A DNA stretch of 64,000 bases, taken from the IMG/VR virus record IMGVR_UViG_3300037504_000149. The stretch is one strand, 5' to 3'. This document shows positions 45,732 through 63,929 of this stretch, in pieces; the stretch's first letter is position 1; the number at the start of each line of letters is the position of its first letter. Below the pieces are notes generated by a model that saw only the letters and a list, made by a program, of their open reading frames with translations, was not told the origin of the DNA and did not search any database. The stretch comes from a virus. Lineage: Duplodnaviria > Caudoviricetes. The position numbers and the translations under genes are program-made.

Positions 45732-46070
45732 CATGTTATGAGGGGGAGTGTAGGGGGAAGGGAGCGGGAGACGTTGAATAGTTACAATATGAATGGGGGA
45801 GTAGAGGGGAGCGGGAGATGTTGAGAGGATGTTGAATAGTTAGAATATGAATAGGGAGGAAGAAGGGGGGGTGATTATTCATATTAAGATCATTCTGAGA
45901 TTTTGCAGGGTATTTATATTATTGATATACCGTACAATCCCCCAATATACGCGCACAAAATTTTGCAACCCCCAATTTTAATTATTCATAATAATTATAT
46001 TCTACCCCCCCCCTGCTCCTTCCCCTGCTCCCGTATTCCTCGCGCTATTATAATTCTACATACCTACCAT

Positions 46071-46209
46071 AAAAGAGTTTAACATAAAACTTCCCTGAAG
46101 TCAATACCTATTTTATTCCATTTTATCCTTGACAAGTTTTCAATCCATATGGTATACTGCCTTCAGAAGATAAAAACGCCCCGGAGGGGGCATAACCTGG
46201 AAGGGAACG
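46071..46209 (+). repeat. cassette module R0 (no terminator)
   Basis: AGTCAA 46099-46104, TTGACA 46129-46134, TATACT 46153, leader hairpin, RBS. Confidence 0.9.
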
Positions 46210-46410
46210 ATGGATAAGGAAAACTTTGATGTATTTTATGCGGCGGCGCAAGCTGTAGCAACACTTAAATCAGCTCGTGCCATTGCCTGTGTCGTTGACG
46301 CTGCTGTCCGTACAAAAGAAACACGGACAGCGCTGAATAAAATCTGTGATGCGCTGAAAACGATGGAATCGGTGCGAAACAGTAACCTAGAAACAATATA
46401 TTCTCGCTAA
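46210..46410 (+). CDS. cassette cargo, 66-aa helical protein
   Basis: Lies between R0 and R1. Confidence 0.8.
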   Translation: MDKENFDVFYAAAQAVATLKSARAIACVVDAAVRTKETRTALNKICDALKTMESVRNSNLETIYSR

Positions 46411-46422
46411 ACATACTACACC

Positions 46423-46655
46423 GCCCCGCTGGAATCCAGCGGGGCTTTTCTTTATCCTGGATATTCGATTATTCTTATATCCTATTTTATATATTCCCCT
46501 TAGTCTTCCCCTTCAAACATAATGCTAACATAAAACTTACCTGAAGTCAATACCTATTTTATTCAATTTTATCCTTGACAATCTAGGAACTAGTATGATA
46601 TAATAGCTTTACAAGATTAGAAACGCCCGCAAGGCGGGCATAACAGGGAGGATAT
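46423..46655 (+). repeat. cassette module R1
   Basis: Terminator GCCCCGCTGG-AAT-CCAGCGGGGC-TTTT, spacer, AGTCAA 46545, TTGACA 46575, leader, RBS. Confidence 0.95.
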
Positions 46656-46838
46656 ATGGAACGGACAACCTATATTGTTATCGGCGGCCAGCAGGTCGGC
46701 ATCACTGGCAACCCCAACGATGACCCGCTGTCCGCCCCGGCGGCCAAGGCGGCGCTGAAGGACTATCGCGCCCGCACCGGCCGGACCGCTGTCCCTATCC
46801 GGCTGGCCAATGGGACGGTATTCTCACGGGGATTCTAG
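46656..46838 (+). CDS. cassette cargo, 60-aa protein
   Basis: GGGAGG RBS; GC-rich. Confidence 0.8.
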   Translation: MERTTYIVIGGQQVGITGNPNDDPLSAPAAKAALKDYRARTGRTAVPIRLANGTVFSRGF

Positions 46839-46846
46839 GTTATTAC

Positions 46847-47076
46847 GCCCCGCTGGAATCCAGCGGGGCTTTTCTATACCTTGTATATTCGATTATTCTT
46901 ATATCCTAATATATTCCCCTTAGTCTCCCCCTTCAAACATAATGCTAACATAAAACTTCCCTGAAGTCAAGACCTATTTTATTCCATTTTATACTTGACA
47001 ATCTAGGAATCCATATGGTATACTACTTTCAGAAGATGAAAACGCCCCGGAGGGGCAAAACTAGGGAGGGGAAAGA
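46847..47076 (+). repeat. cassette module R2
   Basis: Near-identical to R1; AGTCAA 46965, TTGACA 46995. Confidence 0.95.
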
Positions 47077-47328
47077 ATGGAGTATTTATTGCGTCTGACC
47101 CGCGCCCGATATAATGATATACCGATAGATAACATCGGGCAAGCTACGCGAATAAAGGTCAAGAGTATACAAGCCGCTAAGATAGCGGCAACAAGATGGG
47201 CGGAGCAAGTGGCAACACCAAACAAGCCCTATTGTGTCGTTATCTACACAATCGAGGGTACACCTATAATAAGAAAACACAGCTTTACTAAGAAATGGGC
47301 GAAAGCGGGAGAATTCTACTGTACCTAG
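47077..47328 (+). CDS. cassette cargo, 83-aa basic protein
   Basis: GGGAGG RBS. Confidence 0.8.
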   Translation: MEYLLRLTRARYNDIPIDNIGQATRIKVKSIQAAKIAATRWAEQVATPNKPYCVVIYTIEGTPIIRKHSFTKKWAKAGEFYCT

Positions 47329-47334
47329 CATTTA

Positions 47335-47563
47335 CCCCCGCTGGATTCCAGCGGGGCTTTTCTTTATCCTGGATATTCGATTATTCTTATATCCTAATAT
47401 ATTCCCCTTACTCTCCCCTTCAAACATAATGCTAACATAAAACTTCCCTGAAGTCAAGACCTATTTTATTCCATTTTATACTTGACACTCTAGGAACTAG
47501 TATGGTATACTACCTTCAGAAGATGAAAAGCCCGCATAGCGGGCATAACAGGAAGGGAAACGG
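47335..47563 (+). repeat. cassette module R3
   Basis: AGTCAA 47452, TTGACA 47482. Confidence 0.95.
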
Positions 47564-47896
47564 ATGATTTACGAAGTTATTACTCGCGATGAACTCTATC
47601 ACCGTCTGAAGGGGTATAACGACGTATTCTCGTATGAGGGGGCTCGGATAATATACGATTATATTACCGAACTCGGCGATACGGAGCTAGACGTTCCCGA
47701 CATTCACGGCGGGTTTACGGAGTATTCCGATGCTGAGGAAGCGGCAGAGGACATTCTCCCCCCTGATGAGGTCGAGGAAATGCGGAAAGAATTCGCGGAA
47801 TTCCCCGGCCTTGATGATGAATGCTGGAAGGCGCTGGAGCGGGCCGGTGAAACAGTGCTGGGCTCGGCGTCCGGGCCTGTCATTATCGCGGAATAG
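47564..47896 (+). CDS. cassette cargo, 110-aa strongly acidic protein
   Basis: D/E-rich; single gene between R3 and R4. Confidence 0.8.
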   Translation: MIYEVITRDELYHRLKGYNDVFSYEGARIIYDYITELGDTELDVPDIHGGFTEYSDAEEAAEDILPPDEVEEMRKEFAEFPGLDDECWKALERAGETVLGSASGPVIIAE

Positions 47897-47903
47897 TTTT
47901 ATC

Positions 47904-48130
47904 GCCCCGCTGGTATTCCAGCGGGGCTTTTCTATACCTTGTATATTCGATTATTCTTATATATATTCCCCTTACACTTCCCCTTCAAACATAATGCTAA
48001 CATAAAAGTTCCCTGAAGTCAATACCTATTTTATTTAATTTTACACTTGACAATCATTTAATCCGTATGATATAATACCTTTACAAGATTGAAACGCCCC
48101 TACAGGGGCATAACAGGAAAGGGAAGGAAT
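47904..48130 (+). repeat. cassette module R4
   Basis: AGTCAA 48017, TTGACA 48047. Confidence 0.95.
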
Positions 48131-48568
48131 ATGATTTACACCAATCTTGATGAAGCACGCGCCGCGAAGGCGGCGAGCGTAGCAAAGGCGCGAGAGCTGG
48201 AGTCCCGCGCTATCGAAGGTGAGGGGCCTACTTCCACCGAAGCCGAAGAAGTCAGGCATGAACGGTGGATCAAGGAAAACACCCTGGTTGTTACCAGGCA
48301 CGCAGGCCTGGTCGACTACATCAAAGAAGAGTTCATTTATCCCGCGTACCTGGCATCAGACGTGGTATTCTCTCACGTTGAGCAAAAGGACGTGGAGGGG
48401 AAGCACGTGGTTGGCATTTTGCCGCTCCACCTGGCCGCATTGGCAGATAAGGTGACGGTCATCCCCCTGAACCTGACCCCGGCGGATCGAGGTCAGGAAC
48501 TTTCCGCCGAACGGGTGCGGGAAGTGGCCGGTGACCCGGTAACCTACCGGGTCGAGCAGGTGAATTAG
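48131..48568 (+). CDS. Csx16-like protein (putative cyclic-oligoadenylate ring nuclease)
   Basis: VTRHAG...VVGILPLHLAA...L.LTPADRGQELSAE matches the recalled Csx16 pattern SRHPG...IGTLP.HLAA...RG.ELS. Start moved to 48131. Confidence 0.75.
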   Translation: MIYTNLDEARAAKAASVAKARELESRAIEGEGPTSTEAEEVRHERWIKENTLVVTRHAGLVDYIKEEFIYPAYLASDVVFSHVEQKDVEGKHVVGILPLHLAALADKVTVIPLNLTPADRGQELSAERVREVAGDPVTYRVEQVN

Positions 48569-48576
48569 CTCTCACT

Positions 48577-48707
48577 GCCCCGCTGGATTCCAGCGGGGCT
48601 TTTCTATACCTTGTATATTCGATTATTCTTATATCCTATTATATATATATATTACCCTAGTCTCCCCCTTCAAACATAATGCTAACATAAAACTTCCCTG
48701 AAGTCAA
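48577..48707 (+). repeat. cassette module R5 (terminator and reverse promoter only)
   Basis: Similarity ends just after AGTCAA 48702-48707. Confidence 0.9.
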
Positions 48708-48903
48708 GAACTATTTTAATGTATCTAAAACAAGGCAGCACAAGGGTATATTTTAGTCGCCCGTAGAAGTGATATAACGGGCCGTAGATGGCCGTAAAGG
48801 GTGGCAGAGTGGTATAGTATACTTATCTATTGAACGGCCTTAAAATCGCCCTACGGGCATTATATGGAATATCAGGAAAGTTTAATATAGATAAAGTTTT
48901 CTC

Positions 48904-49136
48904 TTGACAGGGAGCAAAGGTTATGATATACTTCCCCCGTAAGATTGAGAAATAGATACCTGAAACGCCCCCCAGAGGGGGCATAAAGGAAAGGGGAATA
49001 AATGAAGGGTTGACAGCGATGGGGAAGTATGATATACTTCCCCCGTAAGATTGAAGATGTAGTAAACGCCCCTACGGGGCACAAAGGAAAGGGGCTAAAA
49101 TTAGGGGTTGACAAGGGTGGGGAAGTATGATATAAT
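48904..49136 (+). promoter_or_regulatory. three tandem promoters, the first two with leader hairpin and RBS but no gene
   Basis: TTGACA-17-TATACT at 48904 and 49010; TTGACA-17-TATAAT at 49108; ~100-bp period. Confidence 0.85.
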
Positions 49137-49145
49137 CCCCTTGAT

Positions 49146-49389
49146 GAGCGTTACCTATAACACAGTATCATTTATTCACTAGAGTTAACAAGGGAGGGAG
49201 GCGCAGGATGAAACACTATCAGCGTAACATCCTGCTGGAACCCGGTTAAATCATCGGGGCGGAAAGTAAGTCGGCCCCGCCCCGGCTTTCCCGGGCCTTA
49301 ACATGGGATACACCGTAGACCTATTGTGATCAACGGTAAATCCGTTGTGACGCTCCCCCGGTCCCTAAACTATGGGGACCGGGGATTTT
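49146..49389 (+). ncRNA. candidate structured ncRNA A with its own terminator
   Basis: End pairing GAGCGTTAC/GTGACGCTC, four internal hairpins, terminator stem 49356-49384. Only a 13-aa ORF inside. Confidence 0.6.
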
Positions 49390-49430
49390 AGTATAGTTAG
49401 TTTATATTATAAGACTGCCGGACTGCCCAC

Positions 49431-49569
49431 AAAAGAGTTTAACATAAAAGTTACCTGAAGTCAATACCTATTTTATTTAATTTTACGCTTGACATTCTAG
49501 GAACTAGTATGATATAATAGCTTTACAAGATTAAAACGCCCCGGAACGGGGCATAACAGGGAGGGAACG
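49431..49569 (+). repeat. cassette module R6 (no terminator, same 5' end as R0)
   Basis: AAAAGAGTTTAACATAAAA..., AGTCAA 49459, TTGACA 49489. Confidence 0.9.
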
Positions 49570-49782
49570 GTGTTTCACTTAAAATTCTACGACGGGACGA
49601 CCGGGAGTGCCGGTTGTTACGGGAGTTTTGATACGCTCGCCGACGCTATGGCTGAGTGTGATACCGTCCCCGGTTGCTCCGGGGAGTCAGGGTATGAGTC
49701 ATCCTCGTTGTATATCGAGGATGACACAGGAGAAGTTGTCGCATCCCTAGGCGCATATTGCGCCGGTTGGGTTGTGGGCTAG
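49570..49782 (+). CDS. cassette cargo, 70-aa acidic protein
   Basis: GGGAGG RBS, GTG start. Confidence 0.75.
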   Translation: MFHLKFYDGTTGSAGCYGSFDTLADAMAECDTVPGCSGESGYESSSLYIEDDTGEVVASLGAYCAGWVVG

Positions 49783-49789
49783 ATTTACG

Positions 49790-49962
49790 GCCCCGCTGAT
49801 ATTCTCAGCGGGGCTTTTCTTTTACCTTGTATATTCGATTATTCTTATATATATCCCCTTACTCTCCCCCTTCAAACATAATGATAACATAAAACTTTCC
49901 TGAAGTCAACCCCTAAATTTCCCTATTAAATCCTTGACATCTATCTGCTGTTTTGATACAAT
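49790..49962 (+). repeat. cassette module R7 (variant; drives an RNA, no leader or RBS)
   Basis: Terminator with compensatory TGA/TCA change; AGTCAA 49904; TTGACA 49934-17-TACAAT. Confidence 0.9.
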
Positions 49963-49969
49963 ACTCGTC

Positions 49970-50102
49970 GAGGTGGCAGCCGCAGTAGGCGCAGGGAAGT
50001 TGAGACCCCTAGACGTAGGACTCCGGTCCCTGTATCCCCGCCGATCACGGGGTGCATGCGGGTGTCGGGATTGTCCGGGCAATCCCCAATCCCGCCCACC
50101 TT
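49970..50102 (+). ncRNA. candidate structured ncRNA B occupying a cassette slot
   Basis: GAGGTGG/CCACCTT closing stem with four internal stems; lies between promoter and terminator; no RBS or ATG-started ORF of meaningful length. Confidence 0.7.
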
Positions 50103-50113
50103 ACATGAAACGG

Positions 50114-50348
50114 CCCCCGCTGGATTCCAGCGGGGCTTTTCTTTTACCTTGTATATTCGATTATTCTTATATCCTAATATATTCCCCTTAGTCTCCCCCT
50201 TCAAACATAATGCTAACATAAAAGTTACCTGAAGTCAATACCTATTTTATTCAATTTTATACTTGACAAGCTATAAACTAGTATGATATACTATCCCCAC
50301 AAGATTAGAAACGCCCCCGGAGGGGGCATAACAAAGGAAGGGGAAGAA
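50114..50348 (+). repeat. cassette module R8
   Basis: AGTCAA 50233, TTGACA 50263. Confidence 0.95.
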
Positions 50349-50861
50349 ATGGGCTGGGATGGTAGGTATATGGATAACACTGTGAAAGCCCGTCAACGAG
50401 TGATGATGGAGACTGTCGGACTGATAGACTTGTCGGTCCGGGGCAATGAAGGGTACGCTGCAGTGAAACATCCCGATATGGAGGCCGTGTTTTGTATGAT
50501 CTTCATTTTCCGGTATTCTGAAGGGGAATTGTGTACAAAGACCTGTACGGAGCTTGACGGCCCGTTTTGTTGGAATTGCCCGCAACGTATTATGAAACAG
50601 CTCACTGCGCCGCTGAACGAGCGGGCGGCGGATTGGCGCGATGCTTGTCGGCTCGCTGCGAAGTTGCGCAAAGCGCGTTATGTTTATCTGGAGCGGTCGC
50701 CGCATGGCACTGACATACGCTTAGTGGAAAAGGTGGCGAATGCTCGGAGTGTTTACCGTGAGATGTATACCGGTGAACTATGGCGGCTGCGCGTTAACAC
50801 TATGATGCACTACGGCGCTCGTCCAGTGGATAAGGACGAAGCCGAGGCGATGTTACGTTAG
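50349..50861 (+). CDS. DUF6927-like protein
   Basis: MGW...YAAV...E.DGP...NCP.RIM..LT.....A.DWR..C. Start moved to 50349. Confidence 0.65.
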   Translation: MGWDGRYMDNTVKARQRVMMETVGLIDLSVRGNEGYAAVKHPDMEAVFCMIFIFRYSEGELCTKTCTELDGPFCWNCPQRIMKQLTAPLNERAADWRDACRLAAKLRKARYVYLERSPHGTDIRLVEKVANARSVYREMYTGELWRLRVNTMMHYGARPVDKDEAEAMLR

Positions 50862-50868
50862 ATTTACC

Positions 50869-51088
50869 GCCCCGCTGGAATCCAGCGGGGCTTTTCTTTA
50901 TCCTTTATATTCAATTATTCTTATATATATATTCCCCTTAGTCTTCCCCTTCAAACATAATGCTAACATAAAACTTCCCTGAAGTCAATACCTATTTTAT
51001 CCAATTTTACACTTGACAAGCTATAAACTAGTATGATATAATAGCTTTACAAGATTGATAGCAGTTAACATTAAAAGGGGAGGGCTCC
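50869..51088 (+). repeat. cassette module R9
   Basis: AGTCAA 50983, TTGACA 51013. Confidence 0.9.
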
Positions 51089-51958
51089 ATGCGTGTTGAT
51101 AAGAAAAAGGAAAAGGTACTCACACACTTAGAGGATATTTTATCGGCGCTGAAGAATGACCCGGCGGCGCTGAAGCGCTTGTCGTGGATTAAACCGTGGA
51201 GTAACCCACCCCGTAACTTGGCCGGGCGTCAATATAACGGTGGTAATGTACATATTCTGAACTTTGCCTCCGTCGTTAGTAGTTATAAGCATAATAGGTG
51301 GGGAACGTTCAATCAATATAAGAAGTATGGGGCCAGCATTATTAAGGGCTCCAGTGCGACGCCTATCTATTACTATAATGTAAAGAAATACACTAAAGAA
51401 GATGAGAATGGAGAGGAAAAGGAATATACTTATTATGTGTTTAAGTATTTTAATCTTTTCAATATCGCACAAACGACATTGGAGATTGAGCGGCTCCCCG
51501 GCGTCGAGTATAAAGAAGTAGAATATACCACACCGGAACGAATCCGGAGGGGATATTGTGACAATGGCGGCCCGGAGTATCAGGAATCCGGTGACCGTGC
51601 CTTTTATCGGCCCGGAGGGGATTTAGTCTGCTTGCCGCCCCGCGAAACATTCCATTCATCAGCGGAGTATGCCAGTACGCTATATCATGAACTGGTGCAT
51701 AGCACCGGGCATGAAAAGCGGCTGGACCGGGGATTTAGCTTGTCTCGGGGCGGGGAAGGGTACGCCCTAGAGGAACTGGTCGCAGAGACTGGAGCGCTAA
51801 TCCTTTGTGACCGGAGCGGTATTAACCCGGACGTGAATAACTTCAAGGCGTATATTGCTAGCTGGCTTCAGGCGGTAAAATCTGACCAGCGTTACAAAAC
51901 TTTCTCCGCATTGTCACAAGCGGAGAAGGCCGTTGACTACATTCTAGGGGAAAGGTAG
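51089..51958 (+). CDS. ardC: ArdC-family antirestriction protein (ssDNA-binding domain plus zincin-like domain)
   Basis: WIKPW, Y.G.N, WGTFNQ, FNIAQT, AFY.P..D.V.LP, HELVHSTGHEKRLDR, YALEELVAE, YIASWL. Confidence 0.92.
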   Translation: MRVDKKKEKVLTHLEDILSALKNDPAALKRLSWIKPWSNPPRNLAGRQYNGGNVHILNFASVVSSYKHNRWGTFNQYKKYGASIIKGSSATPIYYYNVKKYTKEDENGEEKEYTYYVFKYFNLFNIAQTTLEIERLPGVEYKEVEYTTPERIRRGYCDNGGPEYQESGDRAFYRPGGDLVCLPPRETFHSSAEYASTLYHELVHSTGHEKRLDRGFSLSRGGEGYALEELVAETGALILCDRSGINPDVNNFKAYIASWLQAVKSDQRYKTFSALSQAEKAVDYILGER

Positions 51959-51996
51959 ACTTTCCCCTTGACATTATAGAGCATTTTATGGTACTA
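51947..51996 (+). promoter_or_regulatory. palindrome fused to a promoter (type-2 module, copy 1)
   Basis: GGGGAAAG-GTAGA-CTTTCCCC immediately followed by TTGACA 51968-17-TACTAT. Confidence 0.75.
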
Positions 51997-52039
51997 TTGC
52001 CTTAGAAGATTGAAAAACAAAACAAGGGAAGGGGAAAAC

Positions 52040-52612
52040 ATGGCCACGGGAAACTTTCACTATCATACGAATTTGTGTTATGCTTTGCCTGATGACGGTC
52101 CAAACGTATTAGAAGATGCGTTAGATCGTATAAAGGTCGAAGCGGCCCGTATGGGGTTGACGCTGGAAAAGTACCTAGCACCGGAAAAATTCGATACAAA
52201 ATCATACGGTCGGCACTATTATACTCACCTTGCTGAGTATAGTGTAGAACAGCCGTATTATGGCGGGTTCATTACTGTTTCTGCTGGTATTGGCGTCCGT
52301 GCTGGATACTATACTGGTGGATGCTATGACTGCTGCATTATTGCAGAGTTTTACGGCAGTAAGATAGCTGATAGTCACTACGATGACTCCTATACGGATG
52401 TAGATGAGATTGAGGAACTTTTGCTAGAATGTAGCGATGTACCAAAGGGTTTTATTCAGCACGCTGCAATTAAGGTGCGGGATAAAGCCGATGAACTGAT
52501 TGATGAGGTAGAAGATACGACAAACCGCTTACTCGCTGCCGCTGCTGAAGTGAAACTGGCTTGTCTAGGCTCGGCCAGTAACGGCGAGACGTTTTATCGG
52601 AAGGTGGATTAG
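52040..52612 (+). CDS. hypothetical protein
   Basis: Start moved to MATGNF after AGGGAAGGGG. Confidence 0.75.
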   Translation: MATGNFHYHTNLCYALPDDGPNVLEDALDRIKVEAARMGLTLEKYLAPEKFDTKSYGRHYYTHLAEYSVEQPYYGGFITVSAGIGVRAGYYTGGCYDCCIIAEFYGSKIADSHYDDSYTDVDEIEELLLECSDVPKGFIQHAAIKVRDKADELIDEVEDTTNRLLAAAAEVKLACLGSASNGETFYRKVD

Positions 52613-52620
52613 GTTAGATA

Positions 52621-52723
52621 GGGGAAAGCATATGCTTTCCCCTTGACTTTCACGTTGTCTTATGGTACAGTTGTCTTAGAAGATTAAACAACGCCCCGTC
52701 GGGGCATAACTGGGAGGGAAAAG
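52621..52723 (+). promoter_or_regulatory. type-2 module, copy 2
   Basis: 22-bp perfect palindrome GGGGAAAGCATATGCTTTCCCC, TTGACT, leader GCCCC-GTC-GGGGC-ATAAC, RBS. Confidence 0.8.
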
Positions 52724-53353
52724 ATGAAACTGTACAAGCGTAACGGCAAGATGTACCTTGCCGTCGAAGGACAAGAGATTGAGATAGCCGACATTCGAGA
52801 CGCTGTTAAGGCGCTCGGCGGTACGGTCGAAACGTCAACCTATCGCAAAGTCGAGCTGTTTCATGATTACGATTGTCCTAATCCGCTGGAGGGTGATTCG
52901 GAAGTTTTCATCTATCATAAGCGGAATCGAGAGTTTGAAGTCGGTCAAGATATTGAAGCGGCTGGCGGCTTCGAGGGCGTCCGAGAAGCGCATCCCGATG
53001 CTGTTATCGCGCCCCTGTACGCATACGTGCATTCTGGCGTGTGCTTCAGTACCAAGTACACCTATCCTTTCACTTGTCAATGGGATGCTGGATTGACGGG
53101 TTGCATCGTCGGTCCGAGTAAAGAAGCGATTCTTGGCGCTATCGAGGAATTGAATCATTATGTAGCAGGGAACTGCTACGGATATGAGGTGCAAGATGAA
53201 TGGGGTGAGGTGCTGGATTGTTGTGGCGGTTTCTGGGGATATATCGACGACGAACTTTTGAAGGAATATGCGATGGCGCATTGCCCCGACCCGGAGAACA
53301 TGGACGTTGTTTTTAGCGACCCCTTCGGCCGAGAAGAGAAGGTTGAGTGGTAG
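52724..53353 (+). CDS. acidic hypothetical protein
   Basis: GGGAGG RBS. Confidence 0.75.
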   Translation: MKLYKRNGKMYLAVEGQEIEIADIRDAVKALGGTVETSTYRKVELFHDYDCPNPLEGDSEVFIYHKRNREFEVGQDIEAAGGFEGVREAHPDAVIAPLYAYVHSGVCFSTKYTYPFTCQWDAGLTGCIVGPSKEAILGAIEELNHYVAGNCYGYEVQDEWGEVLDCCGGFWGYIDDELLKEYAMAHCPDPENMDVVFSDPFGREEKVEW

Positions 53354-53361
53354 GTAGGATA

Positions 53362-53412
53362 GGGGAAAGCATATGCTTTCCCCTTGACTTTACCGTTATC
53401 TTGTGGTATACT
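53362..53412 (+). promoter_or_regulatory. type-2 module, copy 3
   Basis: Same 22-bp palindrome, then TTGACT-17-TATACT. Confidence 0.8.
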
Positions 53413-53463
53413 TGAGGCAACGTAGCATTGAGAGTAACGTTACATCAAAGGGAAGGAAAAAAG

Positions 53464-53610
53464 ATGATTATGTCACTGAAGATGCGTGCGGAGGCCGCCG
53501 AGAAAAAGGCCGCCGAGTATGCGGCTCGCGATCAGAATGAGGCCAGTGCGGAAATGCACCGCCGCGCCGAGGCTATCCGACGCCGGATGGACCGGGAAGC
53601 GGGGAGGTAA
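53464..53610 (+). CDS. 48-aa helical protein
   Basis: Start moved to follow AGGGAAGG. Confidence 0.6.
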   Translation: MIMSLKMRAEAAEKKAAEYAARDQNEASAEMHRRAEAIRRRMDREAGR

Positions 53611-53612
53611 AG

Positions 53613-54089
53613 ATGCCTTGCACCGAATGTCAAAAAGGACAGTGTGAATGGTATGACGCTGTTATGAGCGGCCTTGCTACGCATTCCGACTTTCCGTTTA
53701 TGGACGCTCGCGGGCGCTGTCTACGCAATGCTGACCCCGATGAACTGTTGCGCCGGGGGATCGACCCGGTATACGATGAATGCTCGGAGTACGAATATGT
53801 CCCCCACGATTGGGAATATCCTGATGGCATGGGGACGCAGGTCCGTGTCCGCTGTTACGATAACGGTGGGCAGACTGTTGACCGGTATACTATTCTGTAT
53901 CAGTATATCGGTGATAAGCATATACTTAACCCGGTATGGGCATTGGCAGTCGGCGCTACGCCGCGTCACTTTTGTCAGCATACCGCTGCCGTTGCGGGTG
54001 ATCACTTGGGCAATCCTATTGCCTTTGATGACCTGCCCGAATCGGTCCAGCGGGCGGCGCTGAAGGATACGCTGAAGGATACCAAGTAA
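53613..54089 (+). CDS. hypothetical protein
   Basis: GGAGG RBS; hairpin 54095-54116 follows. Confidence 0.7.
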   Translation: MPCTECQKGQCEWYDAVMSGLATHSDFPFMDARGRCLRNADPDELLRRGIDPVYDECSEYEYVPHDWEYPDGMGTQVRVRCYDNGGQTVDRYTILYQYIGDKHILNPVWALAVGATPRHFCQHTAAVAGDHLGNPIAFDDLPESVQRAALKDTLKDTK

Positions 54090-54145
54090 CGATATGGCGG
54101 TCCTCTATGGGCCGCCTTAACTATTCTTTTACAGAAAGGATAACA

Positions 54146-54721
54146 ATGTTTACCGACTTCAACGATATATTCGATAACTACCAAGAGGACGACTTGTGGT
54201 TGGATCCGGTAGATGAGAATGAGATATATTTCGGTACGCTGATCAATACGTTTCCGGGCACTGAAGCGGTGGTACATCAGCTTGATGCGGCGTCACACTT
54301 GGGATATATTCAGTATCAGAATACTGAGAAGGAAGTATTCTTTAGTATTGCTACTCTGAAGGAATTGGTCCCTGTGGACAATTTCTCTGGAGAAGATGAA
54401 TGGAAAGAAGAGCTAGAGGATACCTTGAAGGTGTGGGGTGGCCGCATTGACGGCGATGAAGTCTACCTTGTATTGCGAGCGTATGACGTTATTTATACGC
54501 CGCTGGAGCGAATCAAAGAGAAGTTGGATGCCGGGATGTATTCCGCAGAGCGGCTTGAATTTTGGTGCTGGCAAGCCTATAGTGTTGCCACCGTTGACGG
54601 GTGGGTTAGCATCCGTAACGGCCGGTTCAAGCATTCTCGACAAGAGATGATGCAGGAACTGGTGGACATTATCGAAGGTCGCGTTACGCTTGATGATATG
54701 CGGCATGGGGAACGAAACTAA
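54146..54721 (+). CDS. acidic hypothetical protein
   Basis: Start moved to MFTDFN after AAGGA. Confidence 0.7.
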   Translation: MFTDFNDIFDNYQEDDLWLDPVDENEIYFGTLINTFPGTEAVVHQLDAASHLGYIQYQNTEKEVFFSIATLKELVPVDNFSGEDEWKEELEDTLKVWGGRIDGDEVYLVLRAYDVIYTPLERIKEKLDAGMYSAERLEFWCWQAYSVATVDGWVSIRNGRFKHSRQEMMQELVDIIEGRVTLDDMRHGERN

Positions 54722-54759
54722 AAGGATGAGTATGACATTACTTACAAGAAAGGATAGCA

Positions 54760-55038
54760 ATGGGTATCAGTAATTATATGGATAACCGCGAGAAGTGGCT
54801 TAAAAACCTTAAAGCCGGTTCGCTAGTTTGGTGCGCCGAGCTGGGCCGAGGCGGATGCTGGAAGGCTCAGATTAACGATGTTACAGAGCGTACTATTGAA
54901 GTGCAAGCCGATGCGTGGCGTACTGTCGTAGTGGACAGACAGACTGGAATGCAACGTGACGGCACGTTGCGTATCTACCAAAGTATGCCACGTAACATTA
55001 TGAGCCCAGTACAGGAAGTGCGGGCTAAATCATACTAA
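54760..55038 (+). CDS. hypothetical protein
   Basis: AAGGA RBS. Confidence 0.65.
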   Translation: MGISNYMDNREKWLKNLKAGSLVWCAELGRGGCWKAQINDVTERTIEVQADAWRTVVVDRQTGMQRDGTLRIYQSMPRNIMSPVQEVRAKSY

Positions 55039-55054
55039 ACACAGGGAGATAGTT

Positions 55055-55477
55055 ATGAGTGCGTACATGGTCAGTCCGACGACGATTGAGAATATCTTGG
55101 GGTACTTCGAAAGTAAGCTACCTGATACGGTTAAAGATGTGCTAAGTGAGTATGATTTGGGACTTAGTTGGAGACGACTAGGTCGTGAGTTGGTAGCTAT
55201 GAATGCCCGTGCTATTATGGCGCGGTATGATGAAGACCCGTTAGGTAAAGATTGGCAGAGTTGGATGCCTGCACCTGACATATACGATAATCTACGGCCT
55301 AATACTGCCGTGACGCAGATACAGGCGGTTAAATCACTAAAGTGCTACTTGTATCAGTGTAGTGAGGGTGATGTACCTAAAGAGAAGTTGTATAATATGC
55401 TAAAGAAGATAGAGGGCGCGACAATTCGCGCAATTGTCGAGAATTCACAAGAATATCAAGATGCAGATTGGGGATAG
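55055..55477 (+). CDS. hypothetical protein
   Basis: GGGAG RBS; motif LKCYLYQCSEG. Confidence 0.7.
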   Translation: MSAYMVSPTTIENILGYFESKLPDTVKDVLSEYDLGLSWRRLGRELVAMNARAIMARYDEDPLGKDWQSWMPAPDIYDNLRPNTAVTQIQAVKSLKCYLYQCSEGDVPKEKLYNMLKKIEGATIRAIVENSQEYQDADWG

Positions 55478-55559
55478 ATGAGCTTACTAGGTTACATTGG
55501 GTTAACAGTGCTTATAGGTATAACTTGCTGGATTTACCAGTACAGTTTGGAGGTTAAAG

Positions 55560-56075
55560 ATGAGTAACATTATTAACGTAGTAAACAAACCTAACATTTA
55601 CCTAGTTGGCATTACGTTAGGAACGGGAGATTATTTTACGCATAGCGGTAGGTATGCGGAAATCGGAGACCTGAAGCAATACCGTCAGTCTTTACTTGAC
55701 GATTACCATAATGGAGCTACTTATTTAACGTACATTTATAGTGTAGATACTTTGGCAACGATCCCCCGTCATTACTATACCGGACCCTATCTTATTCAGT
55801 CAGTCGAAGATTTAGAGGATAACTTGGATTATCTGATGGGATTGGGTATGGTATGGGGCAAGTATGGTAGTGACTTTCTACTGATGGAGAGCGACGAGAA
55901 TGCCGAAGCATGGGCTGACGCGACGGCCCTTCGCATATCTGATGAATCGCCGTATGACGACGATACTAAAGAGCTGCTACGGGAAGTGCTGTCTAATGCT
56001 CTGCTTAATAATCCTGGGCAGCTTATGCGGTTGATTGGGACTGAGATTATTGAAGAGAATTACTTTAATGAGTAA
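55560..56075 (+). CDS. hypothetical protein
   Basis: GGAGG RBS. Confidence 0.7.
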   Translation: MSNIINVVNKPNIYLVGITLGTGDYFTHSGRYAEIGDLKQYRQSLLDDYHNGATYLTYIYSVDTLATIPRHYYTGPYLIQSVEDLEDNLDYLMGLGMVWGKYGSDFLLMESDENAEAWADATALRISDESPYDDDTKELLREVLSNALLNNPGQLMRLIGTEIIEENYFNE

Positions 56076-56083
56076 CTTTACAC

Positions 56084-56113
56084 TTGACAACCTACCATAC
56101 TCTATGGTAGAAT
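56084..56113 (+). promoter_or_regulatory. sigma70 promoter with internal inverted repeat
   Basis: TTGACA-18-TAGAAT; CTACCATA-CTC-TATGGTAG. Confidence 0.75.
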
Positions 56114-56151
56114 ATGGGTAGAAACGATAAACAAAGGAAGGGGAAAGGGAT

Positions 56152-56646
56152 ATGGCTTGCAGATATACCAAGAAAGGTAAAGAGCTATTCGGCAAACACA
56201 TTCGCCGCTCGCTAGATGCTGCGAAGGTGCCCGTGCCACGTTACAACGTCATTCATGGCATCGTGAACGGCGATAGTGACAGTGGCGTCATTGCGGCATT
56301 GAGTAATGGCGTCCAGTGGCAGGTGACTAACTGCCCCGAAGACTTCGAGGAAGGTACACTGGACGATTACGTCCAGCTTCTGGAGTACGCTAAGGATAAC
56401 ATCGCCGCTGTTACCTATCTGGCGGAAATGCTGGATGTATACTTGGGCGATGAAGTGTGCTTGGTGCCGTCACATCAGACGATACATGCTATCACGCACT
56501 ATGGTATAGGGTACTACAGAACCTGGGCCGAGGAAAATCAGGCTCGGGAGTGGGTAAAGGGAACTGTTAGTGAGTATGCCCATTTACTGCGTACTTATAT
56601 GCAGCCTGAGCTTGTGGAGTACCTTATAGATTCACTTAAGCGATAA
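56152..56646 (+). CDS. hypothetical protein
   Basis: GGAAGGGG RBS. Confidence 0.7.
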   Translation: MACRYTKKGKELFGKHIRRSLDAAKVPVPRYNVIHGIVNGDSDSGVIAALSNGVQWQVTNCPEDFEEGTLDDYVQLLEYAKDNIAAVTYLAEMLDVYLGDEVCLVPSHQTIHAITHYGIGYYRTWAEENQAREWVKGTVSEYAHLLRTYMQPELVEYLIDSLKR

Positions 56647-56665
56647 CTGTCTAGGAGGCGTTACT

Positions 56666-57001
56666 ATGAGTCGGTATTACCGTATGAGTTTCGAGATCAC
56701 GGGGCATGACGATAAGAAGCAGGAAGCGATCTGCTCCGTTGTGAGCGATGCCTACGGCATCGATATGTTCCCTGATGGTAAGGGAATCTACGGTAGCGGG
56801 GAGTATACTCTCGCTGGTGGACAGACTGAGGATGAGTTCGCTCAGGAGGCTACGCTGCTGGTATGGAAGGCCAACGGCAAGCCTTGCCGAGTAAGTATTA
56901 TGCAGTATTATTTGGAAGACCCGCCGTGTACACTATATGAATACACTGAGGACGATGGGGCTATGCTGTCCTTGTATAAAGCCCAACAGAAGGAGAGTTG
57001 A
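56666..57001 (+). CDS. hypothetical protein
   Basis: AGGAGG RBS. Confidence 0.7.
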   Translation: MSRYYRMSFEITGHDDKKQEAICSVVSDAYGIDMFPDGKGIYGSGEYTLAGGQTEDEFAQEATLLVWKANGKPCRVSIMQYYLEDPPCTLYEYTEDDGAMLSLYKAQQKES

Positions 57002-57002
57002 T

Positions 57003-57380
57003 ATGATTCATATCTTACCTATTAAGTTTGTGTGGTATAACACTACGTCGCATGGGTACTGTTGGACTACCGATGAAGGATACCCTAATGGGTATCAAGT
57101 GTGCCAAAACACTATCGCAGGTATCCGCGACATCGTTTTAGAAGACCCCGACATCACATGCAATCGCGGCATGGACCCACTGTTGGACAAAGTATTTTGC
57201 CCTGATTGTCTTGATGATTTTCTGCCTCACGTTTTACCGGATATGTGCGCTGATACCGGATTACGGAACGTACTGGAATCCGTTTCAGCAAGTTATAAGG
57301 TTGTCATTCACTTGGCCGCTGATGAAATTGTTATCACAGTGGGGGAACTTCAGGACGAGATGGCTGAGACAGAAAGTTGA
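57003..57380 (+). CDS. hypothetical protein
   Basis: Start moved to MIHILP after AAGGAG. Confidence 0.65.
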   Translation: MIHILPIKFVWYNTTSHGYCWTTDEGYPNGYQVCQNTIAGIRDIVLEDPDITCNRGMDPLLDKVFCPDCLDDFLPHVLPDMCADTGLRNVLESVSASYKVVIHLAADEIVITVGELQDEMAETES

Positions 57381-57405
57381 CTTTACGATGAATGACTGCT
57401 ATACT
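57377..57405 (+). promoter_or_regulatory. sigma70 promoter
   Basis: TTGACT-17-TATACT with TGn. Confidence 0.8.
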
Positions 57406-57410
57406 GTTTA

Positions 57411-57572
57411 CGGTATCCGCTAGGTTCCCCTTCCCTACCTGGCGGCGGGCGCAGGGGACGAGATGCCCTGTCGGGTGCGCCGTATCTACCCGAGACCTAA
57501 ATACGGTAGCGACCTGTCGCGCTGAGTCGGCAGGAAGTATGGGGGAGTGGCCCTCCCCACTCCCCCTAAACT
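57411..57572 (+). ncRNA. candidate structured RNA C (sRNA or 5' leader)
   Basis: Five hairpins plus a CCGTAT/ATACGG pseudoknot between the promoter and the RBS of the clamp-like gene. Confidence 0.6.
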
Positions 57573-57592
57573 TTCCTAAAGGAGATGTATGT

Positions 57593-58801
57593 ATGACTGT
57601 TAAGCAGTTAAAGAAGATTTTGGATACGCTGAAAAAGTTCTATATGTGGTATAATTGCGGATATTACGCGCTTACGTATACGCGGGTTGAGGTTACGCCG
57701 CTAGGCACAATTTTCGACTTCCTACACAAGGATCGTAGGTTGCGAATTATTACAGAAGAAGAGACGCCGCAGGAACATTGTGGTGAGGTGTACCTTGATG
57801 AAGAGCGTACTAAAACGCTTAAACGGTTGCTTACCAAGAAGTCTACTAAGGATGGCATTACACTAAGTATTAGTAATGATAAGCTAGTGGTAGCTTTCAA
57901 AAAAGGCGATTATAAATTTTCATCTACGCCACCTAAAGATACAAGCGGTTTTGAGGATGTGATAAGTGCATGGAGTAATGCTGCGCACTATGAGCGGGTG
58001 AGCTTGTCTGGTGCGGAGTGGTATAATGAGGTTACACGCATAGGTAAAGTGTGTGCGAAGGACAATGAAAATCGCGAAAAGCTACACTATGTGTACACGC
58101 ATTATTGGGATGGTAAGTTGCGTCTTGGTGCTGTTGATGGACACCGTTTAGTTGACAAGATTTATCGTCCTTTTGCTACAGTTGACACTGCTGATGCTTA
58201 CTTGCACAAGAACGATGTGGCGCTTATCGGAACTGTGTGTAAGAAAGCTGATAGCGTAGATATATGTTATCAGATGAATAGCAGTAAACAAGAAGGAAAC
58301 CGTGATTATGTACTGCGTACATACTATGATGGTATTACTACGTTGGTGTACGGTCCCGCCGCAGAGATAGAGGCACCGTACTGGCAAGAGTTTAAGCAGT
58401 CGCAGACAGGATGGTATGAGGCGCTCCTTGTGGAAGGTGAACGTCTATACACTACAATTGACTTAGCACGTATGGAAGCTGCGTTGAAGCACGTTATACC
58501 ATTGGCGCGTATGAACAGCGATAATAGGGTTAAGTTGACACTGGGTTGTGACATTACGGTGTCTACAAGATCGTGGAATGATGACGTAGCTACCTATACT
58601 ATAGAACATAATAGTAAAGACCTAGGAGCGCGAGTAGTCTACATTAACGGTGTAGAATTACTTGAGCAAGTACAGTTTCTAAAAGTGTTGGGGTTTGAAA
58701 CGACTGAATTGTCTGTTAAAGATGGAGATGAGTCGTTAACTGCGGTAGTCCTAGAGGTGCCGGATTGCGTGTTTTTACAACTGCCTATGCGGGCACCCTA
58801 A
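57593..58801 (+). CDS. DNA sliding clamp (DnaN/beta)-like protein
   Basis: REKLHYVY....LRLGAVDGHRL matches the beta-clamp domain II motif; C-terminal YIN...L.E...LQLPMR. Start moved to 57593. Confidence 0.65.
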   Translation: MTVKQLKKILDTLKKFYMWYNCGYYALTYTRVEVTPLGTIFDFLHKDRRLRIITEEETPQEHCGEVYLDEERTKTLKRLLTKKSTKDGITLSISNDKLVVAFKKGDYKFSSTPPKDTSGFEDVISAWSNAAHYERVSLSGAEWYNEVTRIGKVCAKDNENREKLHYVYTHYWDGKLRLGAVDGHRLVDKIYRPFATVDTADAYLHKNDVALIGTVCKKADSVDICYQMNSSKQEGNRDYVLRTYYDGITTLVYGPAAEIEAPYWQEFKQSQTGWYEALLVEGERLYTTIDLARMEAALKHVIPLARMNSDNRVKLTLGCDITVSTRSWNDDVATYTIEHNSKDLGARVVYINGVELLEQVQFLKVLGFETTELSVKDGDESLTAVVLEVPDCVFLQLPMRAP

Positions 58802-58805
58802 AAAC

Positions 58806-58834
58806 TTGACATTTACCTTATCGTGTGGTATTAT
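58806..58834 (+). promoter_or_regulatory. sigma70 promoter
   Basis: TTGACA-17-TATTAT with TGn. Confidence 0.75.
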
Positions 58835-58863
58835 AGAGTTGACCTACTAAGGAAGGGAAGGTT

Positions 58864-59520
58864 ATGGGCCAGGAAGAGTTACTAAACTACATTGAAGATG
58901 TCAAGACGGACATCGAGGCTACTCTGCAGAAAGAGTATGACGCCGTAGTGGAACGTTACACCGAGCGGGAATTCGCCACCCCGCCTGATTGGGGTGCGGG
59001 CAATCCTACGCTGCTCGAAACGTCTTGTTACGACCAGCACGTTTATGAGGCGATGCGGCACGCCCCGAAGGGCATTTACATTCTCGATGCCAACCTGAAC
59101 ACGGAGTATTCGTTCCAGTTTCCGGCATTAGAGTTGCCGAGTTATAACCTGATTACTGAGGTACTGTCTAGCGCAGTGGTACGTCAGATTATCAAAAACA
59201 TCGCGGATTTTGATGTGGACTTTTACGCACTAGAGGACGGTGTGCCGCTATTCACTCAGTACGAAACTTGCCCTATCATGGCATACCGCATCGATCCGGT
59301 TCCGGAGTACGATCACTATACTTTGGAAAACTTTCATCATGCGTATCTCGTTCGTCACGACGGGGTGTGGAGTGTTTTTTGTAAGAATGGTAAAGTACGT
59401 GCCTTGGCGGCGTATCAGCAAGGTCTGCTGCGTCTGCTTGAAGTAGAGGACTTTGACACGGCGATGGGTGAATTCGTTGAGTCGATGGATACCAAGATCG
59501 ACTACACTAAACTTGCTTAG
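58864..59520 (+). CDS. hypothetical protein
   Basis: GGAAGG RBS. Confidence 0.7.
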   Translation: MGQEELLNYIEDVKTDIEATLQKEYDAVVERYTEREFATPPDWGAGNPTLLETSCYDQHVYEAMRHAPKGIYILDANLNTEYSFQFPALELPSYNLITEVLSSAVVRQIIKNIADFDVDFYALEDGVPLFTQYETCPIMAYRIDPVPEYDHYTLENFHHAYLVRHDGVWSVFCKNGKVRALAAYQQGLLRLLEVEDFDTAMGEFVESMDTKIDYTKLA

Positions 59521-59530
59521 GAAGGTAGTT

Positions 59531-59785
59531 ATGCCGAAGTATAAACTGGAAATACCTTATCTGGAGTTGTGGTACTGTACGGCTATTGTTGAGGCGGATT
59601 CCGCCGAAGATGCTGTACAGAAATATAACGAGAGTCTAACTGGATCCCCGCGTACAGATGACCCGGATGGGAGTGAGTTTGTGGAAACTCTGGGAGTGGC
59701 GGAAGATCAACCTTTCTATGCTCAAGAAGTTGAAGAGCATACGACTTATGAACCTATTGGAGAGAGTGTGCGTATAGACCTCTAA
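59531..59785 (+). CDS. small acidic protein, DpnD/PcfM-like motif
   Basis: VEADSAEDAVQK; similar to 62738. Confidence 0.55.
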   Translation: MPKYKLEIPYLELWYCTAIVEADSAEDAVQKYNESLTGSPRTDDPDGSEFVETLGVAEDQPFYAQEVEEHTTYEPIGESVRIDL

Positions 59786-59802
59786 AGGAGGGAAGGATTA
59801 CG

Positions 59803-59988
59803 ATGGAAGTTATTCGAGGCAAGTACGGTGAGGCTATTGGGTACAGGGAGCGCTGCGGTTCACGTATTTATCTACGTGACGAAGCAGGACAAACCCTCGG
59901 ATACTACGACGAGGGTATGGATCGAACGTATGACAATGTTGGCATGGAAGTTGGTCAGGGTAACATCCTGTCTAGCCTTCTGCCGTAG
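59803..59988 (+). CDS. hypothetical protein
   Basis: GGAGG RBS. Confidence 0.65.
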   Translation: MEVIRGKYGEAIGYRERCGSRIYLRDEAGQTLGYYDEGMDRTYDNVGMEVGQGNILSSLLP

Positions 59989-60110
59989 AGGACTTTTCCT
60001 AGTTAGTCCTAAAATAAACTAGGTGGTGGACCTCCGCATGAATGCGGTTTGCCCCTTGCCACCCCTCGATCTTTGTGGCAGTGTCCCGTCGAAGCGAGGG
60101 ATAGACGGGA
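59989..60110 (+). other. intergenic structured element (H-type pseudoknot and kissing hairpins)
   Basis: AGGACT/AGTCCT with CCTAGTT/AACTAGG; hairpin loops CCCTCG and CGAGGG are complementary. Confidence 0.55.
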
Positions 60111-60129
60111 ACAACTATACAGAGGGAAT

Positions 60130-60597
60130 ATGAGAATTACTATTATAGATGATATGATTAGTCGTTTAGAGCAGTTTGAAGAAAACTTACCTAAAGGACA
60201 TACCGTTCGTACACCTTTGGACCTAGAAATTGCAGAGGTTACAAAGGGGTGTATTGAAAATACTTTAATGTGTGGAGAAGTTTTACTAGAGGAAGGTTGT
60301 GATGTATTATATTTAGATCATGACTTCGGACCGGATACTTTACAAGGCGCGTATGGCGGTGTCACGTCAGGTACTGGAATGGATTTATTGCAAGGGATTA
60401 TAAAAAACTTGCTGCCCTGCCCTACTTGTGCTATAATTGTACATAGCGCAAACGTTCCGGCAGCGATTCAAATGGTTGCTAAGGCGCAGGTGCTTGATAT
60501 TCCAGTAGTTAAAATGTGGGCACCATGGGCTGTTAAAGGTTGTAAATTAACTTCTGTTATCAACGAGGATAATAATGATAATATGGGAACTACCTGA
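60130..60597 (+). CDS. cyclic-phosphate-processing receiver domain (cREC-like) protein
   Basis: IIDD, LYLDHDFG, GTGMDLL, IIVHSANV. Start moved to 60130. Confidence 0.8.
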   Translation: MRITIIDDMISRLEQFEENLPKGHTVRTPLDLEIAEVTKGCIENTLMCGEVLLEEGCDVLYLDHDFGPDTLQGAYGGVTSGTGMDLLQGIIKNLLPCPTCAIIVHSANVPAAIQMVAKAQVLDIPVVKMWAPWAVKGCKLTSVINEDNNDNMGTT

Positions 60598-63118: not shown

Positions 63119-63504
63119 GAGACTTTAACAAAGACTTGCACGTTAGGGCTGTCATGTTTCTTCAGCGTAACGCTAGGAAGCAGCAAGCAGCGTTAGGTGG
63201 AACTACTGACAGACCTAGACTAGAGTTGCAACGAGATAAGGTGGGAGAAATAGAGGGTTATAGAGGTGATACTATACCACTTTATCGTTACTTCCTTAAT
63301 GATGGTTCTATAGTGGAGGAAGTGGCACAACGTAAAGTTAATCTTAACGATGTACTGGGTATTACTTTAACTCAGTTGATTGATGACAAGTTGGGATGTA
63401 TTATATTTAAGTGCCTACAAACTGATGATGGTAGGGCTTTTGGTAAATGGACGCAAGATGAGATAAAGGAAATTACAGCAAAAATAATTGATAAAATAAC
63501 TTGA
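63115..63504 (+). CDS. hypothetical protein
   Basis: GTGA overlap with the upstream gene. Confidence 0.6.
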   Translation: MRDFNKDLHVRAVMFLQRNARKQQAALGGTTDRPRLELQRDKVGEIEGYRGDTIPLYRYFLNDGSIVEEVAQRKVNLNDVLGITLTQLIDDKLGCIIFKCLQTDDGRAFGKWTQDEIKEITAKIIDKIT

Positions 63505-63529
63505 CATAGACACCTGCTTATGGTATCAT
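63501..63529 (+). promoter_or_regulatory. tmRNA promoter
   Basis: TTGACA-17-TATCAT with TGn. Confidence 0.8.
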
Positions 63530-63544: not shown

Positions 63545-63929
63545 GGGGCTGATAAGGGTTCGACGTGCGAGTAAAAGTGAGGTAGCATCCCGTGGTTGGT
63601 CTCTAGGCCACGTAAAAAAGAGACCAAACAACAACAGCCGAAAATGCTGTTCCCTTGGCTGCTTAAAAAGCCGCTCCTCTATGGAGCTAGGCTCGTAGCC
63701 CGCCCCCGGAAAGGTTTCTCTGCACCTGACTGGATAAGGCGTCAAAAAGCAGGGGTCCGACTTGGAGTTACCTAATCGCTCCTAAAAGGACTACAGAGTA
63801 ATTAGGTAGGGTGCGCGAGACTGTGCCGTATCAGCCGGACCGCACCGACACGACATGATACGGCTATGGATGTAGATGCCGAAGCGGCACTTGACACGGA
63901 CGCGGGTTCGATTCCCGCCAGCTCCACCA
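63545..63929 (+). ncRNA. ssrA: tmRNA, tag AENAVPLAA
   Basis: Acceptor stem GGGGCTG/CAGCTCC with G3:U, ACCA end, T-arm GCGGGTTCGATTCCCGC, pseudoknot pk1, tag frame 63637-63666 ending LAA-stop. Confidence 0.97.

Follow-up and report, generated by a model that had tools for sequence, protein, structure and literature searches.

Does the GC-rich, hairpin-bearing stretch at positions 57411-57572 of IMG/VR virus record IMGVR_UViG_3300037504_000149 encode a small RNA (sRNA) that silences the early genes of its own phage, or is it the leader of the gene that follows? A preliminary description of the 64,000-nucleotide (nt) stretch of DNA analyzed here (hereafter, the window) had noted a hairpin loop antisense to the ribosome-binding sites (RBSs) of early genes and had proposed a trans-acting sRNA. 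We find instead that the RNA is best described as the 5′ leader of a gene for a beta-sliding-clamp-like protein, and we tentatively favor, at a little short of an even chance, the reading that this long structured leader acts in cis on the clamp mRNA. The argument draws on the following features, all on the + strand; RBS elements of the Shine–Dalgarno type are abbreviated SD, and open reading frames ORF.

57377-57405, + strand: sigma-70-type promoter, TTGACT-17-TATACT, with 10/12 hexamer matches and a TG extension.
57417-57445, + strand: hairpin H1, CCGCTAGG(T)/(A)CCTGGCGG, with a 9-base pair (bp) stem that includes one G-U pair and an 11-12-nt pure-pyrimidine, C-rich loop in the minimum-free-energy fold.
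57425-57436, + strand: H1 loop, TTCCCCTTCCCT, with two UCCC motifs; reverse complement of the early-leader RBS motif.
57453-57458, + strand: AGGGGA, alternative partner of loop bases 57426-57431; SD-like, 4 nt before the AUG of a 20-codon upstream ORF.
57463-57525, + strand: upstream ORF of 20 codons, basic and Arg-rich, preceded by AGGGGA and with its stop codon in the H4 loop; it may be a chance ORF.
57471-57476/57488-57493 and 57480-57485/57502-57507, + strand: crossing 6-bp complementarities (CCGTAT/ATACGG repeat and TCGGGT/ACCCGA), claimed as an H-type pseudoknot.
57513-57534, + strand: hairpin H4, -11.2 kcal/mol, z -2.04, with 10/300 shuffles as stable.
57541-57550/57557-57566, + strand: hairpin H5, a perfect 10-bp G+C-rich stem (100% complementary) whose CCCTCC loop includes the anti-SD core.
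57578-57584, + strand: clamp SD, AAAGGAG, canonical, 8 nt before the ATG at 57593; predicted to form a weak local hairpin with 57571-57576.
57593-58801, + strand: beta-sliding-clamp-like gene, 402 amino acids (aa), with a weak PHROG match and a predicted-structure match; an orphan by sequence.

The extent of the transcript decides between a leader and a separate gene. The promoter named in the preliminary description is present as listed. Its -35 hexamer shares bases with the stop codon that closes the preceding gene (ORF end 57380), and because no terminator was seen between the upstream three-gene unit and the leader, the leader is probably transcribed both from this promoter and by upstream read-through. 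Between a predicted start near 57412 and the AUG at 57593 lie ~181 nt of leader with a GC content of 0.61, compared with 23-50 nt and 0.36-0.52 for the leaders of seven other promoter-proximal early genes; GC reaches 0.61-0.66 across 57400-57559, between flanks of 0.36-0.50. After H5 the sequence continues as TAAACTTTCC, with no T-run that would give a U-tract, and H5 falls outside the 31 terminator-like sites found. A promoter scan of the 26-nt interval from H5 to the clamp AUG gave no match. With neither a U-tract after H5 nor a promoter before the clamp AUG, the RNA is, by sequence, the clamp-gene leader and not a separate sRNA gene. The free-standing sRNA originally proposed is thereby probably lost: the RNA is probably, at minimum, the leader of the clamp-like gene, and it probably exists in that form only, although a ~160-nt fragment could still arise by processing after H5. 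The clamp SD is canonical and unlike the motif common to the early leaders.

Folding was compared with 300 dinucleotide shuffles for each part and with 200 shuffles for the element with its flanks. H1, which presents 57425-57436, can be read in the sequence and is found in the minimum-free-energy fold; it folds at -14.6 kcal/mol (z -2.58, 6/300 shuffles as stable). H5, the terminal hairpin of the preliminary description, folds at -21.8 kcal/mol (z -4.59, 0/300), and its loop is unpaired with a probability of at least 0.9. The middle part (57446-57512; -21.5 kcal/mol, z +0.34, 183/300 shuffles as stable) and the 5′ half of the element (-35.8 kcal/mol, z +0.27, 179/300) fold no better than shuffles. 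The claimed pseudoknot lies in that middle part: the crossing 6-bp complementarities of 57471-57507 exist and would be sterically possible as an H-type pseudoknot, but the region is no stabler than shuffles in nested (pseudoknot-blind) folding. Perfect 6-mer inverted pairs numbered 10 against 5.0 expected, and 41/500 shuffles reached 10. A scheme with H5 as attenuator and the H1 loop as antiterminator was rejected, since at most 6 bp could form against a hairpin of -21.8 kcal/mol.

The exposure of the H1 loop is likewise partial. The loop is presented by H1, but pairing of 57426-57431 with 57453-57458 competes with that hairpin and is present in two of three minimum-free-energy folds. Because of this internal pairing, the mean unpaired probability of the loop (UCCCCUUCCCU) comes down to 0.55, 0.73 or 0.87, according to where the transcript is taken to end. 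The + strand holds 22 C-rich pyrimidine runs of at least 10 nt, 3 of them flagged as loops; only that of H1 sits in a strong hairpin, the two others belonging to hairpins of -6.7 and -0.2 kcal/mol.

On the cis reading that we tentatively favor, the clamp message would owe its stability and its rate of translation to the very stable H5, placed just upstream of the SD, and to H1 and H4. The C-rich H1 loop would toggle between an exposed state and one paired with AGGGGA, the SD-like element of the 20-codon upstream ORF; because this ORF follows AGGGGA and has its stop codon in the H4 loop, the cis reading gains a concrete, if unproven, toggle. Complementarity to the early RBS motif would then follow incidentally from an anti-SD-like loop, or would be a secondary function at best. 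That the leader regulates at all, and in which mode, is our inference. Several points weigh against the reading. The whole element is only marginally more stable than its shuffles (-70.9 kcal/mol, z -1.41, 24/300 as stable), and so is the element with flanks (z -1.79, 10/200). The clamp SD is not evidently sequestered by the leader beyond its weak local hairpin, and the cis mechanism is at present only proposed. Finally, the loop match to early RBSs beats a permutation test and 120 shuffled and native controls, so that a purely cis view leaves it unexplained.

How strong is that match? The 12-mer of the loop is, as first noted, the exact reverse complement of 52025-52036, and 10/10 matches occur at two further early RBSs:

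52025-52036, + strand: top predicted trans target, a 12/12 complement of the H1 loop that ends 3 nt before the AUG at 52040.
50336-50345, + strand: predicted target, complementary at 10/10 positions, within the RBS of the gene whose start is 50349.
56136-56145, + strand: predicted target, complementary at 10/10 positions, within the RBS of the gene whose start is 56152.

The 10-mer GGAAGGGGAA has three exact + strand copies, at 50336, 52027 and 56136, and one on the - strand, at 57425. Allowing up to one mismatch it occurs 17 times against 3.59 expected (0/100 shuffles reach 17), and the 12-mer with up to two mismatches occurs 12 times against 4.72 expected (0/100 shuffles reach 12). Alignment of 12 promoter-proximal start regions yields a common leader end, approximately GGGGCATAACA-RGGAAGGG(G)AA, from which the clamp start region differs. 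The three exact RBS matches therefore represent one event rather than three, all being copies of one homologous leader motif. The loop-RBS match was, moreover, chosen post hoc by a reader seeking such matches. Derivation of the H1 loop from an inverted duplication of an RBS-bearing leader was rejected; the similarity ends at exactly 12 nt.

Pairing energies were computed for gene starts from a crude in-house caller (105 starts, with start 50496 replaced by 50349), divided into early start regions at 45000-57400 (n=24, some of them doubtful) and groups at 1-45000 (n=65) and beyond 57400 (n=16). Plain duplex energies were taken between the 12-mer and positions -25 to +3, with a 9-nt anti-SD motif as comparator. 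Mean energies for the loop and this motif were -11.7 and -8.4 kcal/mol in the early group, -5.6 and -7.2 kcal/mol at 1-45000, and -7.6 and -7.5 kcal/mol beyond 57400. For a test against all 792 permutations of the same composition, 19 early starts were kept and the doubtful 45509, 45672, 45903, 49772 and 50000 were excluded. There the H1 loop averaged -13.05 against -11.37 kcal/mol (standard deviation 0.76), with 11/792 permutations as good or better. Its best single target was equaled in strength by 2/792, and its count of seven targets at or below -15 kcal/mol was reached by 67/792.

The whole leader was also scanned with an accessibility correction, using an in-house simplified stand-in for IntaRNA and all 24 early starts. 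The top targets were the starts at 56152, 52040, 50349, 47077, 47564, 53464 and 52724, at -16.8 to -12.7 kcal/mol, which makes 7/24 early start regions at or below -12 kcal/mol. Of the 17 start regions scoring -8 kcal/mol or lower, 14 are predicted to pair through the H1 loop and 3 through the H5 loop (CCCUCC). Early starts scored -8.44 kcal/mol on average, against -3.67 for 1-45000 and -4.76 beyond 57400; 100 random windows averaged -3.52, and the best of them reached -15.2 kcal/mol. Ranked in this way against controls drawn within the window, the leader stood out as the preliminary description would have it: neither the observed mean nor seven strong targets was reached by any of 60 dinucleotide shuffles (average 0.42 strong targets) or 60 native 181-nt windows (average 0.3). 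The closest native control window had a mean of -8.38 kcal/mol and six strong targets. Strong targets were absent altogether for the tmRNA, the cREC gene leader and two further candidate RNAs.

A hybrid-only scan of both strands gave 223 overlapping sites at or below -14.5 kcal/mol, 38 of them at start regions; the best non-self site of either strand was 52024-52037, with a hybrid energy of -24.0 kcal/mol. The coding strand is purine- and G-rich, and equally good pairing sites outside RBSs are numerous. Taken at face value, the permutation controls put chance complementarity of the pyrimidine loop at roughly 0.3-1.4%; allowing for the many loops that could have been picked, we estimate a few per cent.

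These results bear most directly on the alternative that best survives them, a trans-acting anti-SD riboregulator. Here the H1 loop, with the CCCUCC of H5, would bind the early G-rich RBS motif (…AACAARGGAAGGGGAA…) and block ribosome binding; the effector could be the clamp mRNA leader itself or a fragment processed after H5. In a possible mirror-image variant, abundant early mRNAs or G-rich RNAs from backward promoters would regulate the clamp message by titrating the loop. We consider riboregulation of this kind doubtful yet a serious rival; giving the cis, trans and common-motif readings roughly similar weight, we settled on the most conservative of them, the cis one. The 12/12 and both 10/10 complementarities do sit on RBSs, with hybrid energies of -18 to -23 kcal/mol against about -8 kcal/mol for the anti-SD motif at the same sites, and the targets nevertheless share one homologous leader motif and amount to effectively one independent match. 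Early start regions pair better than the other groups and the random windows, yet they rest on crude gene-start calls, some of the 24 being doubtful. No shuffle or native window (0/60 each) did as well and the four other structured RNAs had no strong target, but one native control window came close to equal, and only 38 of the 223 overlapping sites are at start regions. The loop ranks 11th of 792 permutations, serves in 14 of the 17 well-scoring start regions and is the sole strongly presented C-rich pyrimidine loop of the sense strand, although its unpaired probability falls as low as 0.55.

The way in which the RNA would be made also speaks against trans action. Lacking a terminator, it is not predicted to be a discrete sRNA. 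The 57377 promoter belongs to the same host-type class as the early and cassette promoters and is weaker than most of them (10/12 against 11-12/12), and so would provide neither delay nor excess over the supposed targets, a poor fit to the stoichiometric shut-off of many strong early mRNAs. The prior for any phage leader acting in trans on its own early genes is, in addition, only a few per cent. The trans shut-off first proposed is partly supported, its pairing having held up against controls within the window. It seems to us rather unlikely, with the titration variant included, that the clamp leader doubles as a trans mimic of the ribosomal anti-SD tail, out-binding 16S rRNA at the cassette RBSs. 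Were it to do so, accumulation of this replication-gene message would shut down translation of the early genes for counter-defense and takeover.

Could the loop and the RBSs resemble each other for a common reason, with no RNA-RNA pairing at all? A TTCCCC/GGGGAA word might bind a factor (a nucleic-acid-binding protein of phage or host, or ribosomal protein S1 recognizing a pyrimidine tract) or belong to a local sequence grammar. AAGGGGAA has 5 occurrences on the + strand and 13 on the - strand, all within 46494-57425; the word appears twice in most cassette spacers, and as a palindrome arm it adjoins the -35 hexamers at 51968, 52643 and 53384. A binding protein is only hypothetical, however, with no candidate identified; within the palindromes the word is merely one stem arm, and the RBS match reaches 12 nt, past a common word of 6-8 nt. 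We regard this explanation as improbable. The palindromes themselves, GGGGAAAG-N4-6-CTTTCCCC at 51946-51973, 52621-52648 and 53362-53389, each lead straight into a promoter -35 hexamer (TTGACA/TTGACT; promoters at 51968, 52643 and 53384) and could serve as operators or as compact junctions of terminator and promoter. They have the TTCCCC word in common with the H1 loop. The cassette spacers of 46494-50952 each carry, downstream of the terminator, a + strand pyrimidine run of the TCT(C/T)CCCCTTC type, so that any read-through RNA there would also be complementary to the early RBS motif.

Still less probable is a stretch with no dedicated function, either a GC-rich insertion or relic with incidental hairpins (the middle part and 5′ half do fold like shuffles, and neither an Rfam match nor a paralogue in the window was found) or part of a longer coding frame, ORF 57392-58801, which is open through the leader in frame with the clamp gene: the GC spike is sharp and three hairpins beat their shuffles, the ATG at 57392 falls between the -35 and -10 hexamers, the stretch would translate into a Pro/Arg/Cys-rich segment unlike the remainder of the protein, and a good SD stands at 8-nt spacing before 57593.

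Among known systems, the nearest in form are the Firmicutes RNAs with C-rich loops, namely RNAIII, RsaE/RoxS and other Rsa RNAs, and RNAIII also serves as an mRNA. The clamp leader likewise has unpaired C-rich loop motifs (two UCCC in H1, CCCUCC in H5). It is also likewise complementary, beyond controls, to the G-rich SDs of several mRNAs, though here the pairing is predicted and the targets carry one motif. For RsaE and RNAIII, Geissmann et al. (2009, PMC2790875) describe UCCC motifs that are unpaired, bind to SD sequences and prevent initiation, a precedent that favors the trans alternative. Unlike the RNAIII and RsaE/RoxS class, the clamp leader has no sequence or Rfam match and no Rho-independent terminator. 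It is also phage-encoded, and its predicted targets are early genes of the same phage.

Phage T4 offers a parallel in concept. Its RegB and RegA proteins act post-transcriptionally on early mRNAs, RegB cutting at GGAG (PMC3014915; PMC1702504), so that there, too, a motif in the initiation region of early mRNAs is the common handle for shut-off. The T4 regulators are proteins, whereas the effector proposed here is an RNA loop and the motif GGAAGGGGAA. RegA is described as repressing the clamp gene 45 and the clamp-loader gene 44 at A+U-rich, unstructured sites (PMC3014915), and the GC-rich, structured clamp leader differs from RegA sites so described. The lambda sRNA PreS/LPR1, which is reported to enhance translation initiation of host dnaN (bioRxiv 10.1101/2024.10.31.621285), is likewise a phage-encoded RNA tied to sliding-clamp supply; PreS, as presented there, is a separate sRNA whose target is the mRNA of the host clamp, whereas the RNA here is the leader of the phage's own clamp gene. 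T4-type phages also carry promoter-early stem-loop (PeSL) cassettes (Arbiol et al. 2010, PMC2839356). Set beside that account, the predicted targets here carry the leader end of the repeated module. The clamp leader does not itself belong to the cassette copies: it shows no resemblance to the module, lacks a terminator and has a unique 181-nt GC-rich sequence. In the literature searched we found no phage RNA that represses its own early genes through a common RBS motif, which does not prove that none exists.

The interest of the locus depends on which reading is correct. If the pairing is real, a lytic giant phage would time its early-to-replication switch by an RNA that competes with the ribosome for a phage-specific RBS motif. 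This would be an RNA-only equivalent, inside an mRNA, of the early shut-off so far known from proteins such as T4 RegA and RegB, and it would account for the persistence of one odd RBS across early cassettes that are otherwise unrelated. The titration variant, if true, would time clamp synthesis to early expression. If the leader acts in cis only, it is an orphan structured RNA before an orphan beta-clamp gene in an uncultured phage lineage, of moderate and local interest.

Relatives of the RNA were sought at several levels. Across the window, Rfam 15 gave no match at gathering score besides the tmRNA and a tRNA; for 57300-57700 it returned three matches, all sub-threshold (17.4 against 60, 15.3 against 55 and 10.3 against 38 bits). 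Known riboswitch, ribozyme, sRNA and leader families were ruled out on the absence of an Rfam match, and a tRNA-like element was rejected because ARAGORN finds only tRNA-Trp and the tmRNA. A blastn search for paralogues in the window (word size 7) gave only short matches, with E values of at least 0.22. Kinship with RNAs at ~49200 and ~49990 was rejected because it rests on the 8-mer GGCGCAGG alone, which was not counted in view of its five + strand occurrences (25473, 49200, 49988, 57448 and 60483). Megablast and tblastn against 50,697 phage records gave no match, and IMG/VR searched by protein and by 29-mer gave nothing. Searching IMG/VR with the H5 pattern returned one match, an unrelated terminator-like hairpin (L001). 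In JGI metagenomes, protein alignment found no match and a 19-mer found four (L002-L005), which we attribute to chance because their flanks are unrelated; an in-house index of look-alike sequences gave none either. The stretch was present in one sequencing run only, a DNA run of a tidal-flat metagenome from which the window itself may derive, and in none of the RNA sequencing runs searched. The Logan contig of that run is identical over 56500-59500; it is not independent of the window and carries no information on variation.

The protein encoded downstream is, by its predicted structure, of the beta-clamp fold. The 402-aa sequence had no Pfam match and a weak PHROG match (E 1.2e-4) to phrog_947, DNA polymerase processivity factor. 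For this exact sequence, the ESM Atlas model aligned over 358 residues, with a TM of 0.78, to a cluster whose members are 100% DNA_pol3_beta; an AlphaFold model from a two-row alignment (pLDDT 31.7) was not used. HMMER against 1.84 billion representatives found a sole homologue, P0003 (82% identity, 264 aa), with P0005 as one further cluster member. Both are called at 264 aa, on Logan contigs whose lengths are 4,308 bp for P0003 and up to 13,623 bp for P0005, and both begin at residue 137 of the 402-aa protein. Their N-terminal domain may thus be missing, disrupted or encoded separately, and the 5′ region of their genes may differ from the one described here.

The window derives from a large uncultured phage, the clamp-like protein being encoded on a contig of 229,864 bp, and its long ORFs all lie on the + strand. 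GC rises from 0.30-0.38 in the first 40 kilobases (kb) to 0.44-0.50 at 46-60 kb; this composition step (1-40000 against 46000-60000) separates a presumed structural part from the early/replication part of the same phage. Between 45 and 61 kb there are many strong sigma-70-type promoters and repeated stem-loop terminators, and the cassette modules of promoter plus stem-loop are visible directly in the early-region sequence. Promoter-like sites number 80 against 36.4 expected and terminator-like sites 31 against 15.1, and the cassette terminators all end in a TTTTCT tail.

Other features of the window were noted in passing. G-rich low-complexity tracts on the + strand at 43900-44110 and 45000-45870 consist of GAGGGGAGGGA-type repeats, with a G9 run at ~44098-44110, and give many strong predicted pairings with the C-rich H1 loop. 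A protein combining ArdC-N and a zincin peptidase (MPTase-PolyVal) is encoded at 51089-51958, and one with a cREC_REC cyclic-phosphate-processing receiver domain at 60049-60597. A tRNA-Trp lies at 32673-32746, and a tmRNA at 63545-63929 (137.9 bits, tag ENAVPLAA) follows a promoter-like site at 63501-63529. Upstream of the cREC_REC gene, at 59989-60129, is another GC-rich, structured stretch, this one promoter-less.

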